From: Eledone cirrhosa
Lineage: Eukaryota
Direction of reading: 5' to 3'
DNA: 64,000 nt
Assembly: GCA_964016885.1 (NCBI GenBank)
Contig: OZ024740.1
Location: forward strand, 349,618,001-349,682,000
In this document: positions 4,561 to 48,220 of the stretch, in pieces
Numbering within the stretch: the first letter of the stretch is position 1
Layout of the letters: every line of letters starts with the position of its first letter
Translations under genes and position numbers: made by a program
The notes under the pieces: model-generated
The model's database searches: none
What the model was told of the DNA's origin: nothing
Seen by the model: the letters and a program-made list of their open reading frames with translations, nothing else

Positions 4561-6884
4561 GGAACTTTAAAGCCACCTACTAATTTTGAGGTCTTTAAGT
4601 GCAGCATTCTTTGAATGTAATCAACAAAAGTTGTATTACATGTATTCATAATATATCAATGTTTCGCCTTATGGGTATTTACAACAGCATACAATAGATG
4701 GTGGTTTCTTCCATTGATTACCCTAATATATATTTGCTTCCACAAATCAAGAATCACTGCAGTTGCTAATACAATATCAATGCAAAACACTTTTTTGTAG
4801 ATAGTGCGTTTGCTCTAATGTATGAATGAATAATGTCATTTTAAAAAATGTTTACATTTTTATTTTTTACTTGAATAAATATATAATTACATTTTTGCAG
4901 TTTACATAATTACATATTTCTGTAATTTCAATAAAATGCTCTTTAATAAAGTCTTATTAGATTATAATATTTGACTCAAGCGAACCCATGAGAGCCAATG
5001 CGTGATGGCACAACAGCTAGAAATAGCAAGCTAATCTCCCTCAAATCACATCAGACAGTCTCAAATAAACAAAGGATGCGCAATAGATAACGTAGCTCTA
5101 CTAAAAAAAAAAAAAAGGTGTGAAAACTACAGCTGGAATGCGTCTGCTAGATCAGTGTTAATGTGGTTTTAAAGAACAGTTAATTCAATGCGGCTTTCAA
5201 ATATAGTCTAAATACTGAAACTTCTGCACTCTTGCAGTATCACTCTTCTTCCTTCCTTCCTTCCTTCCTTCCTTCCATCATCATCATCATCAACAACAAC
5301 AACCTCTCGGACCGATATGTAATTACCGTCACCTAAAACCCACCCGGTGTATCTGAAAATTTTACATCATTCCTCCATGTAGGCAACACTCCGTAACAGG
5401 CTTCGTAGCTACGCTATCCTCTCCACACGCCCCGACAAGGCAATCTCAGAGTTCATGTTCCATTGTAAACATAACAATAAGGGAGTGCTTATACATCCTG
5501 CTACGGCGGCGTTGAGCAAGGCAACTGATGCATAACTCATGTAACCCCAACATTAATCTTAATTCGGTGTTATCTTCGACTAAACCTAAAGGGAACTAGG
5601 CAAACAATAGCTAAAGAAAAACATAAATATAGAATAGAAAATACAAAGACTATTCAAAATGTAGGTCATAAGAAATAAATTAAGGGAATGGTGACTACTA
5701 TTCCCCTCACCATTTTTACCATGGACACGTAAACTTTCATTAACCTCGTATTGATAGGGGAGAATGGATTTGATTGAGTAGCCCTTGATTCTCGTGACCT
5801 ATCTGGCAGCAGCTCTGTCTTAAGACGGCGAAAAATAGATTGGAAAGTGTGTGACACCATAAGACGATAGAGGTAGGGAGGGAAGAGAAGAAATAGAAAA
5901 AAGAAGGTTGGTGAGATGGCACGGGGAAGAAAAGGTGAGATGAGGTCAGCAAAAAATGGCGGGGGCTTAGTAAGCTACTATGTTCGTTCAGCTCAGAAAA
6001 TATATTCTGTCCCTGATGTTTCTGACAACCACGAGCTCCCTAGTGAAATGTCACACCACAAATGGAAATGTGAGTCAACAAGACCTACACGATCGCACAA
6101 CTTGCAGCTAAATATTCCTTTAGCCCAGGGTTTCCCAACCTGGGCGATTTCAACTGTGGGTGGCTGATTAGCAACAGAACAAAAAATGGTGGGCGATTGG
6201 AACTTTTCAAATAGTTCTTCGGAAGAATTAACATCTTTTTTTTTTCTCGGATATAAATCAGATAAGGAAAGACCAAGATCAACTTTGCCAATAAAATTAA
6301 ACTCACCAGCGCCCCAACACCGATAGATCACACAGCTTGAAAGACGGATGAGAGTGGCGATCATGATCCAAGTCAACGGGTCGGCTCTAAGTATGCGCCT
6401 GTAAACTGCAAGACAGCTAGGAGGGGGCACTTTTTGTGGCTTTTCTCCAAGAGTGACACTCAGAAATATACCCCCTATCTGGGAATTTATTTTTTTTTAT
6501 TTTTTTAATTTTACATGTTTTTGTAATATATTTTTACACGAAAAAAATAAAATAAATCCCACACTATCGTCTTGAACCATCATTAAACTTTGTGGTTAAT
6601 AAAGAAATTATTATTTAAATTCATCAACATAGTCGTAATTTACATCTTCGGAAACATATCTCTGCAGGATTATATTTTAAAATGTTCGTTAATAAGGAAA
6701 TCAAGAGGAAACGAGTCCAGAGAGTGTCATTTAATTGTTGTTATACTGATAGTAAAAGATGAATATTCAGCGATCAGGAGGAAATGCAGTGGTTTCTCTT
6801 AAAAGAATGTCTGTGTTCAGCAGGAACACCATTACATGGGGAAAAGTCTTGAAGTTATTTAGCGATTATATCGATGCTAACACG

Positions 6885-22150: not shown

Positions 22151-26658
<4,508 letters not shown>

Positions 26659-27810: not shown

Positions 27811-29497
27811 GTCGAAAACGACCTGTACTACCCATACAGGAAACCTAATGACAATCTGCACTACATCCACCGCCGATCAAACCATCCTAGGAACATCACA
27901 AACAACCTGGTCAAAAACATCTCCCTCCGCATATCCCGTTTGTCAGCTAATGAGCGGATATTCGATGAACATGCGCCTTATTACAACCAGGCCCTCAAGC
28001 GGAGTGGTTTCCGGGAGGAAATATCCTACTGTCCAGCTCCCATTAGCGGAACCAGCAGGAGACACCGCCGCTCACGCAATGTAACATGGTTCAATCCTCC
28101 CCACAACGCAGAGGTGGCTACTCCCATCGGGAAACTATTCTTTAGGCTCATTGAAAAACACTTCCCATTACAACACCGCTACCACAACATAATTAACAAA
28201 AATACCATCAAACTCTCTTACAGCACTACACCAAACTTCGCACAAAACATCGTCTCCTCTAACAACAAAAAACTCAACCCCGATGGCAGAAATAACCGAA
28301 ATAGCAGTGGAGAACCGACCAGGAGGTGTAACTGCCCGGATAGATCTATTTGCCCACTCGACAATAGATGCAGAGACCGTAATGTGATCTACCAGTGCAA
28401 CGTGAGGACGGATACCTCCAACAAAGCCTATATAGGACTTACCGCATGTGACTTCAAGACCCGGCTATACCAACATAGACATACCTTCCGAAACCCGGCC
28501 CGGCGTCACGCCACTACACTTTCGGGCCACATATGGGACCTCAAGGACAACAACATCACCTATGATCTTACTTGGAGATTACTGTCCAGAGCCAATTCTT
28601 ACACGGGAGGACGCCGTCCGTGCAATTTATGCTCGGAGGAAACTTTACAAATGCTGTTTTCGACGGACCAACTCCGAAACAAGAAAGATGAACTGGTTAC
28701 TGCATGTAAACATAGATTGCGTAGGACTTACCTCGCCCTCAAACCCCATAATGACCCGGGGGGGGGGGGGGTAGACTAGGGCTATAACACCCCACTTGCC
28801 GATTTTGCAATGGGTAACCCCTGCTTGCCAAGGAAGACGTAAGATCTTCTTTGTATTCTTTTATCGCTTCCTTTATTTCCTTCCCCCCTCTCTCCTTTGT
28901 CCTTCTACCCCAGCTCTTCTCCTTTGTCGGCGTCTTTTCTCGCCCACCCGAGACTGCCCTTTGGCCCCATGTAGCCTTAGTACCCCCACCACCCCCTCCC
29001 CTAGTGTATGATAGATTTGGCGGACTCCGCCCTTTATAGCAGTTGGCTTAGACCCCGGATACTTGCCCCCTTTTTCCGACCGCTCCCACTATTCTCTGTG
29101 CCCTCTATATTTCTTAGTGGCACTTATGCCTTATTTTTTCGTTTCAGTATCTCTTGCTTCGCTTTTCTTCTGGGCGGGGTGGATTCTGAATTTATTTCTC
29201 CGTTTTCTACCTTTATTTCGTACGAACTTTCATGTAGCTTGTCTTAGATCTTTTAGCATTTAGAGTTAGCATTAGTATATATTTTTCTCGGGACTCAGAA
29301 TTACTATCTCGTACAAGTTCACTTTGCTGCACTGGGTCGTTGCTGGCCCGGGATGGAAACCTTTATTGTGTATTTCGTGGTAGTCTCTTTAGTATTTTGG
29401 CCCCTTTTGTTGACCCGTCACCGTATCATTTACGTACTTATACCTCTTAAAAGGGTCCTTGCCTATTCCGTCCCACCTAGTTCTTTTACTTTTTTCG

Positions 29498-29532
<35 letters not shown>

Positions 29533-29981
29533 CTTCTTTCTTTCTTTCTTTATTTTATTCTAGCCTAACAATAGCCTGACACCTAGGTCGTAGAATTTAA
29601 TTTACTTTACTTTTTTCTTTACACTTATTTGCTTTTCTATATATTTCTACCCCCCATTGTTCTACCTACCGTTCCGACTTCCTCCCCTCCCCCTCCCCTG
29701 TATCTTCTTTGACCTCATGCCCAGCTGTAGCAGGCACTACCAACGCTTGATTGGGTCTACTCCACCCCCTCCCCTCTTTCTCCTACTGGCAGGTTTAGCC
29801 ACCATCTCCCCTACTAATTTGCAACCACAGAATTACTACTGATTTTTGACAATCACTTTGACCATATATGGAATTACCCCTTGAGAAGATCGGCTATTTA
29901 AATACCAGGATAAATTTTCATTTAGTCCAGAATTAGCCGTCGAAACGGCTTGAGCTCAGCTGTCGGGGTCCTACTGGTTCC
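27811..29981 (+). mobile_element. 5'-truncated Penelope-like element (RT thumb, GIY-YIG, 3' region with hammerhead)
   Basis: Frame of ORF 27940-28779 with upstream [53 protein letters not shown]. Pyrimidine-rich 3' region ending at (TA)n. Confidence 0.93.
29876..29969 (+). ncRNA. Type I hammerhead ribozyme with U3-A8 core variant
   Basis: ACCCC, UUGAGAA, stem II GA(U)CGGCUA/UAGCCGUC, GAAA, stem III ACGGCU/AGCUGU with loop UGAGCUC, GUC cleavage after 29964, GGGGU. Confidence 0.8.
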
Positions 29982-30361
<380 letters not shown>

Positions 30362-30364
<3 letters not shown>

Positions 30365-30790
30365 AGATTTGAATGGATACAGTTTAGTTGAAAGGAATTT
30401 ATTGACACGTGTTTCTATAACAGTTACATAACCTAAAACAGCTATCTACAAACTTTTAGTTATGCAGACATTCAATATTTCAATGTTATTATTTACTGTC
30501 ATTTCATCAGAATAATATTACTGAGGACCTATTTAGTTTTTATAGAGAATATTAGGAGGGAGGGGTGAAGTTGTTAGAAGAATAGTTGAAGGAGTGGTTT
30601 TTCGATAGCAGTGAGAATTCTTGGTGGCAGTGAGTAATTAGATTCCCATCTGTTGTTTTGACATTTTTTATAGAATATATTATTGGTTATTTTTCTAAAT
30701 CTATAGAAGGATTAGAGATAGTAAAGATATGCGTGGTTGGTTTTGTGTTTGCACTTAATTAACATTCAGACTTAAATTTTTCTTTCAAGT
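30362..30790 (-). mobile_element. PLE 3' end remnant
   Basis: The minus strand near 30780-30740 reads KSE.LIKCKHK with a frameshift (GIY-YIG C-terminus). A same-strand hammerhead lies downstream. Confidence 0.6.
30399..30515 (-). ncRNA. Type I minimal hammerhead ribozyme with long stem-loop II
   Basis: Minus strand: UUAUU, CUGAUGA, stem II AUGACAGU/ACUGUUAU, GAAA, palindromic CACGUG, UC cleavage, AAUAA. Confidence 0.75.
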
Positions 30791-47707: not shown

Positions 47708-47870
47708 ATGGCAAGAGCTCAGCTGTCGGGCCCTGGCTCTCTCTAATATATATATATATTAGAGAGTCAGTACCCGGCGGCTGAGTTCTTGCCGTTTCGA
47801 CAGCTAATTCGAGACTTTAGGCTGACATTAGCTGTCGAAGCAGCAACAGCTCACCCGTCGGACTCCGACT
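47708..47870. repeat. Double fold-back of a hammerhead/PLE terminus related to 29930-29981
   Basis: GGCAAGAGCTCAGCTGTCGGG (+), its inverse CCCGGCGGCTGAGTTCTTGCCGTTTCGACAGCTAA (-), then TTAGCTGTCGAAGCAGCAACAGCTCA (+). Confidence 0.75.
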
Positions 47871-48220
47871 TTAATATAGTTACACTCTACTATCCCAAAT
47901 ATTGAGTACTCTGCTGAATAAGGGTCTTACTAGCTTAAAACTGGTAAAATCCATTATATATATATATATATAAGCAAAGAGATATTTAATTTGTTGGTTA
48001 TTCAACAAATTTATTTATAACAGATCGAAGCACTCTACAAATTTCTTCTATCCAAAATGAACTTAAAACGATAAGTTCTTGTTTTGGGGATATGTCAATA
48101 TTTATAAAACAATGTTTGTATTTTATCTGATGAGTGCGTACCAAAATTTTGGTACCCTTGAAATATATATAATAAAATAAATATGGTTTTATAAAAATAG
48201 TTTCCATGTATTAATATCAT

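Follow-up and report, generated by a model that had tools for sequence, protein, structure and literature searches.

The sequence at 29876..29969 of the window (the whole 64,000-nucleotide stretch of Eledone cirrhosa DNA that was analysed) is predicted to fold as a type I hammerhead, carried in the terminal repeat of an abundant Hydra-clade Penelope-like element (PLE) in which the U3-A8 core pair is family-wide. On balance we judge this hammerhead likely to be a slow or conditional ribozyme, and transcription of the element likely to start within its loop II. The U3-A8 core by itself is already known; less expected are that the majority of copies start in that loop, at the probable transcription start, and that a mismatched C3·A8 sublineage still spread, so that cutting is probably weak or optional.

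The element and its surroundings

The features of the locus are as follows, with their basis in brackets.

27812..29984, + strand: 5'-truncated Hydra-clade PLE of the youngest subfamily, flanked by (TA)n tracts (copy comparison)
27812..28779, + strand: ORF remnant with the end of the reverse transcriptase (RT) region, linker, GIY-YIG endonuclease and stop (translation, comparison with the copy in L031)
28839..29563, + strand: 725-nt GT-AG intron with polypyrimidine tract, retained in this copy (intron-less insertion elsewhere)
29870..29880, + strand: stem I, 5' strand (29876-80) plus extension (29870-75) (pair probabilities 0.75-0.99)
29881..29887, + strand: core box U3 U4 G5 A6 G7 A8 A9 (UUGAGAA) (sequence and genome patterns)
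29888..29941, + strand: stem II (29888-96 with 29934-41) and the 37-nt loop II (folding, alignment)
29922..29927, + strand: TTAGTC, initiator-like (TYAGTY), with A29924 as candidate transcription start (conservation, arm ends)
29935..29950, + strand: predicted alternative hairpin burying the GAAA box (prediction only)
29942..29964, + strand: G12-A13-A14, stem III, loop with GAGCUC palindrome, GUC triplet (fold and conservation)
29965..29981, + strand: 3' strand of stem I, 6-nt bulge, extension strand, short 3' terminus (copy comparison)
29982..30361, no strand: (TA)n target microsatellite (sequence)

A preliminary description of this DNA had assigned the hammerhead to a PLE, and terminal repeats with the hammerhead, inverted 5' copies and a tail all bear this out. 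The ORF remnant, 97.8% identical to the L031 copy, contains a CxCX5C linker (28327), VIY (28384), YIG (28429), CxxC (28621) and CxH (28705). Pfam gave no match for the remnant, nor did Pfam and PDB searches for the PLE ORF; 2,475 homologues were found at E<=1e-20 among 8,000 scored. The near-complete relative in L033 runs from hammerhead through 190 nt, ATG, RT and endonuclease to hammerhead again, its single ORF combining an RT bearing YRDD with a C-terminal GIY-YIG. DKT, the CxCX5C linker, CxxC, CxH, the absence of CCHH (judged from the translation) and insertion at (TA)n were all found, with RWR at the position of the Hydra RWK motif. By these motifs and its (TA)n targets the element fits the Hydra clade, as defined in the available part of PMC8557442.

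The 725-nt intron is missing exactly at its GT-AG borders from one other insertion (L005-L007 and L033-L034, near 214.08 Mb of G000:C2), and therefore the RNA template of that insertion was spliced. That insertion is a near-complete copy with a symmetric inverted 5' arm and contains three repeat segments, each without the intron, which fits a spliced circular or multi-unit template. A candidate branch point and acceptor at 29813-31 was rejected, not being conserved across subfamilies. The 3' termini of copies fall at one of two fixed positions, located 17 and 97 nt beyond the predicted cut, which delimit the PLE tail; the present copy ends at the short 3' terminus, whereas others run on for 80 nt to the long one. 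In this 80-nt tail the short-end motif recurs (L013:1686-1782), and the tail is far better conserved across subfamilies than loop II; the repeated motif possibly represents twin protein-binding sites. This truncated copy is probably inert unless read through by host transcription.

Several other elements were seen alongside. A LINE that we take to be of RTE/L2 type occupies window 22400-26064 (+), with endonuclease and RT frames, a frameshift near 23900, a stop at 25098 and C2H2-like motifs at its end. PLE-like RT and GIY-YIG frames of different families lie beside copies of this element (L036:3962-5968, L038:6439-7110), and four J-like U3·G8 hammerheads, ~26.5 kb apart on one strand, form a large tandem array at G000:C440:38328-118060.

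Hammerhead fold and the 3:8 core pair

Pair listing and sequence agree with the preliminary description in that three closing stems, GAAA (29942-45) and GUC (29962-64) are all present; three helices surround the core and the ends lie in helix I, as in type I hammerheads. Stem I comprises 5 Watson-Crick pairs (29876-80 with 29965-69), extended past a 6-nt bulge by 6 further pairs (29870-75 with 29976-81) that had been overlooked; the bulge differs among subfamilies, and no contact between loop II and stem I was identified. Stem II has 8 bp in all (G29888-C29941, A29889-U29940, a bulged U29890, then 6 pairs), of which A29889-U29940 characterises just the youngest subfamily and the distant J group; U·U or C·U takes its place in most of the others. 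Within loop II a weak hairpin is predicted (29908-28, -3.2 kcal/mol). Stem III has 6 pairs, one of them G·U (29945-50 with 29958-63), and the cut predicted from the sequence, 29964|29965, does fall 17 nt ahead of (TA)n at 29982. A second GUC (29925-27) was ruled out as a cut site because stem I cannot form 3' of it.

The hammerhead is the minimum-energy structure of 29868-29984 (-27.5 kcal/mol, ~0.18 of the ensemble), a share that drops to 0.009 with 68 nt and to 7e-6 with 168 nt of extra upstream context, and its folding z-score is unremarkable (-0.44). A strict hammerhead descriptor matched once in the window and never in 60 shuffles; with a loose descriptor there were 0.6 matches per shuffle, and its match with CTGATGA at window 30447-30510 (-) fails the strict test and is within the chance rate. 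Rfam hammerhead families gave no match at the gathering threshold nor at E<=10. The alternative hairpin 29935-29950 is predicted both in RNA from the candidate start site and in folds of D and F subfamily copies, where it hides GAAA; the predicted hammerhead share is 0.29 for subfamily A, 0.04 for one G copy, 0.002 for one D copy and 0.01 for one F copy.

A palindromic loop III of eight nucleotides, UGAGCUCA, had also been proposed, with the suggestion that it could allow dimer pairing. A palindrome is indeed present there, but the eight-nucleotide version takes in A29958, which is already paired as the sixth base pair in stem III. This leaves UGAGCUC as the loop, with GAGCUC (29952-57) as its conserved palindrome. 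The dimer itself gains support in silico, where a stem-III-swapped form is favoured (-71.5 vs -55.0 kcal/mol) and the predicted two-copy co-fold through swapped stem III retains both hammerheads. Inversions centred on the loop III GAGCTC palindrome were seen at L026:1700-1840 and L152:1-122, and the palindrome may possibly help two cDNAs to anneal too.

The core box does not read as the canonical C3UGANG8A; it reads UUGAGAA, in which U3 and A8 form a Watson-Crick 3:8 pair. These two bases are not private to this copy: a single pattern frame applied over the genome, with reversed controls at 0, counted 4,776 U3/A8, 1,342 C3/A8, 48 U3/G8 and 10 C3/G8 matches. The description of U3-A8 as a compensated variant holds at clade depth, because 26 of 26 published Hydra hammerhead rows in the available part of PMC8557442 are C3-G8. 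Within the family it does not hold: the proposed check for 3/8 covariation among copies found none, since the 10 C3/G8 matches are close to the ~12.7 expected if the positions were independent (the copies themselves not being independent). Nor is the variant new, having appeared already in PMC3088659 and, for PLEs, in PMC4209133, even in the available parts of these papers.

When the core was left free, the 100 matches listed of 5,071 had U77/C21/G2 at position 3 and G81/T12/A7 at N7, with U4, A6, A8 and A9 in 100/100 and G5 in 98/100. The core register is supported because, among these 100, N7 varies while U4, A6, A8 and A9 are fixed; at subfamily level, variation in the free core is confined to positions 3 and 7 among the matches listed. 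U4, G5, A6, A9, G12, A13, A14, A15.1-U16.1 and H17 are conserved, the catalytic bases being kept in 98-100 of 100 matches listed, and those listed for the 3' half show scattered single changes alone.

Sequence comparison indicates that C3·A8 marks real subfamilies. On one loop background, C3 occurs 736 times vs 26 for U3 and 16 for a U4C control, the latter possibly undercounted because U4C creates CpG. C3 makes up ~68% of the depth in short-read contigs placed on one C3 copy (X1); these contigs, from four runs of one study that possibly include the assembly's own sample, argue solely against an assembly artefact. A C·A+ pair is isosteric with U·G. A shifted register for the C3 copies (N7 deleted and a base inserted after 9) is conceivable, and nearly all of them carry G7, which would fit, but shared ancestry accounts equally for this. 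A partial literature search, with figures and most supplements outside it, found no published report of core mismatches in PLE hammerheads or of a C3·A8 excursion.

The history of the family was approached through a tree of 49 rows with positions 3 and 8 masked; a first tree had dropped 64 of 120 rows without upstream homology, and later alignments and trees leave out 14 chimeric or fold-back loci. The tree is a ladder, I-H-G-F-E-D-C-B-A, in which subfamily A, that of this copy, nests in the C3·A8 group D, with supports of 93-97 at several nodes and weak ones at others. Outgroup J falls at E with support of 29-44, and many inner nodes are weak. The difference from the column majority becomes smaller, with 0.059 in I, ~0.045 in G, F and E, 0.017 in D, C and B, and 0.007 in A, on a yardstick of 120 pattern-selected copies that is inflated by heterogeneity in the old groups. 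This copy's subfamily thus appears, from its sequence, to be descended from C3·A8 subfamilies, and the core likely went from U-A to C·A and back to U-A. Old family I (113 matches) has 91 U3-A8, 8 U3·G8 and 1 C3-G8 among 100 matches listed, and its stem II carries a compensatory change of G-C to A-U. At the young end, 11 of 40 scored matches (this copy counted) are 100% identical over 203 nt.

Where copies begin and what this implies

The preliminary description had expected RNA 5' ends at 29965; the 5' ends of genomic arms map instead to 29918-29930. The genome holds 50,060 matches to the 3' half of the ribozyme vs 5,071-6,176 with the 5' core, an excess of ~8x between patterns that differ in strictness. 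Arms were sampled in 60 regions, covering 86 of the 100 matches listed of the 50,060 (12 of the 14 left out being known full-core copies). The 3'-half copies are for the most part head-to-head insertions of ~200 bp; about 52 of the 60 regions are head-to-head pairs, mostly with one short and one long arm. Among 126 arms, 97 begin 34-46 nt upstream of C17, where the cut is predicted, and the remaining starts lie further upstream (6) or further downstream (23), with 1 of the 126 at the cut; the sample needed one arm with the 3' half, and could not have detected pairs whose two arms both begin at the cut. In 31 tight pairs, 61 of 62 ends fall within the -46 to -34 zone; they cover 13 nt, with peaks at -40/-39, -36 and -34, and the junctions differ, with 0-4 nt of overlap or filler; 12 of these 62 ends reach 1-6 nt upstream of A29924.

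Of 123 full copies, 120 retain A29924, against a variable loop upstream of it, and AGTY is retained in most of the distant J copies. TTAGTC fits the TYAGTY initiator of Pol II starts, in which A is +1; this consensus, given in the available part of PMC6483594, comes from Drosophila. Arms of old family I begin either at this A or one base beyond it (L040, L047, L081, L100, L157), and in folds of the family I loop this A is unpaired in 1 of 3 and within a 2-bp helix in the other two. Some long copies extend upstream of the candidate start (L033, L028), and therefore other or read-through transcripts exist. A partial literature search found no published report of a start site inside a PLE hammerhead, or of such short inverted elements.

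Two further observations concern arms elsewhere. Window 47710-47960 contains an old, diverged J-type short head-to-head insertion, flanked by (TA)n tracts, whose arms begin in the same loop-II zone. At L094, L095 and L098 truncated arms adjoin hammerheads of a second family, which has short stems and the canonical CUGANGA box, and the idea that copies target other hammerheads at these loci was set aside as probably a search-pattern artefact.

In the mechanism that we propose, the initiator at A29924 would yield RNA beginning with the 3' half of the ribozyme alone, and the element protein would prime reverse transcription on both target strands from the two tail sites. Reverse transcription would run off the RNA 5' end, and the joining of two cDNAs would give the ~200-bp head-to-head elements. 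A complete hammerhead would be present only in read-through RNA or at the 3' terminus of a unit transcript; long copies such as this one would result when priming takes place at the 3' repeat or on read-through RNA, and their cDNA would go back to RNA left uncut, or re-ligated, at C17. Because efficient cutting would strip priming sites from upstream RNA, weak activity may be tolerated or favoured, which would account for the U·G and C·A phases, and the return to U3-A8 together with fixed catalytic bases suggests some selection for activity, likely in dimeric form or aided by protein. Cleavage is probably weak and dimer- or protein-dependent, with templates left uncut; such a gated ribozyme fits both the low in vitro activity of PLE hammerheads and the protein-assisted, dispensable cleavage in Anolis.

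A more far-reaching version, to which we give slightly less than even odds, is that one 100-nt stretch serves as ribozyme, promoter and priming platform, the RNA 5' end being half a ribozyme in an off-state hairpin; that two-strand priming and run-off are what left the ~20,000 stereotyped head-to-head insertions of 200 bp; and that the active lineage, no longer needing fast cleavage, passed from C-G through U·G, U-A and C·A back to U-A. If this is true, the four 3:8 states are a natural allelic series for testing what PLE hammerheads do, and a start inside the ribozyme accounts for the oversized loop II, the excess of half ribozymes and the copying of uncut RNA. The family offers dated natural core variants, one of them mismatched yet spreading, and tens of thousands of cDNA ends reporting the template's 5' end.

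Stalling of the reverse transcriptase at the distal hairpin or at a bound protein could leave ends in loop II as well, with the hammerhead as described above and no start site implied. The modes at -36 and -34 do coincide with the 3' edge of the predicted hairpin 29908-28, and the 12 ends that extend past A29924 would suit it, but that hairpin is weaker than stem III (-4.9 kcal/mol), which is copied first, family I ends at the same A despite a different loop fold, and AGTY is conserved where the remainder of the loop is variable; we regard stalling as unlikely. Distinctly unlikely, in our judgement, is a model along the lines of the preliminary description, in which monomers or dimers of an efficient compensated ribozyme would cut at 29964|65 and the cut would shape the transposing RNA, with ligation to a circle possibly following. 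The single arm of 126 that begins at the cut speaks against it, as do the low activity of PLE hammerheads in vitro and the >1,300 copies left by C3·A8 subfamilies with a predicted hammerhead share of 0.002-0.01, even though all stems close in a fold that is the local minimum, catalytic bases are fixed over subfamilies, U3-A8 is reported active in vitro (as cited in the available part of PMC3088659) and the one spliced insertion, its three repeat segments all intronless, is consistent with a circular template.

At the opposite extreme, the motif might be a catalytically dead relic whose 3' half is kept as promoter and protein-binding hairpin only. A tolerated 3:8 mismatch, the predicted alternative GAAA hairpin and the loss of G8 in nearly all copies would be expected of a relic. 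We nevertheless hold this to be very improbable, because catalytic bases upstream of the candidate start are fixed and U3 was regained: the 5' core keeps U4, G5, A6 and A9 while N7 varies, stem II shows a compensatory change, and the youngest subfamily recovered the 3:8 pair along with the best predicted fold (0.29). A weak, conditional ribozyme containing a probable start site remains the preferred reading.

Comparison with known systems

The comparisons below refer to the available portions of the cited papers. The closest hammerheads are those of Schistosoma PLEs, in which Cervera and De la Pena 2014 (PMC4209133) report ~1,300 U3-A8 hits. Like the minimal hammerheads of Cercyon PLEs in S. 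mansoni and the PLE hammerheads with a palindromic helix III, the present one is of type I, on the sense strand and in a PLE terminal repeat, with a U3-A8 core, a long helix II and a palindromic loop III suggesting dimers. It differs from the PLE hammerheads of that paper in its 5-6 stem III pairs, by virtue of which the monomer is able to fold, in its 37-nt loop II, in the lack of an extra base between 9 and 10.1 and in its C3·A8 and U3·G8 sublineages. Perreault et al. 2011 (PMC3088659) described natural U3-A8 hammerheads that have this covariant pair in the core and, by their statement, are active in vitro; those cases are isolated, whereas here a series of subfamilies runs through four pairing states.

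With the C-terminal GIY-YIG PLEs of the Hydra clade (Craig et al. 2021, PMC8557442) the element shares DKT, the CxCX5C linker, CxxC, CxH and the absence of CCHH, as well as (TA)n targeting, inverted 5' copies and a tail. It departs from them in having RWR for RWK, a unit of ~3.5 kb with a 725-nt intron and a tail of 80 nt in place of 30-40. All 26 Hydra hammerhead rows listed there have CUGANGA, a loop II of 3-10 nt and a stem III of 3-4 bp, unlike the present family, and the function of PLE hammerheads is called unclear in that paper.

The Poseidon element PAc of Anolis (Frangieh et al. 2024, PMC11167929) offers a parallel for insertion: two internal RT start sites give a tail, both strands are primed at AT-rich targets, and the hammerhead lies upstream of the RT start sites. 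Two-strand priming from two sites was shown in vitro for PAc, whose hammerhead depends on protein and can be dispensed with for insertion in vitro, no reads having mapped to its cut. The PAc core is C3-G8 and overlaps the ORF start, whereas here the ATG lies 190 nt past the cut; a start site in loop II, as proposed here, is not described for PAc in the portion of that paper referred to. Penelope of Drosophila virilis (Schostak et al. 2008, PMC2377424) has an internal, TATA-less promoter with an initiator, as is proposed here, and likewise an intron in the repeat. In that element the order is start, intron, hammerhead (PMC4209133), whereas in the present one the candidate start would lie inside the hammerhead, after the intron.
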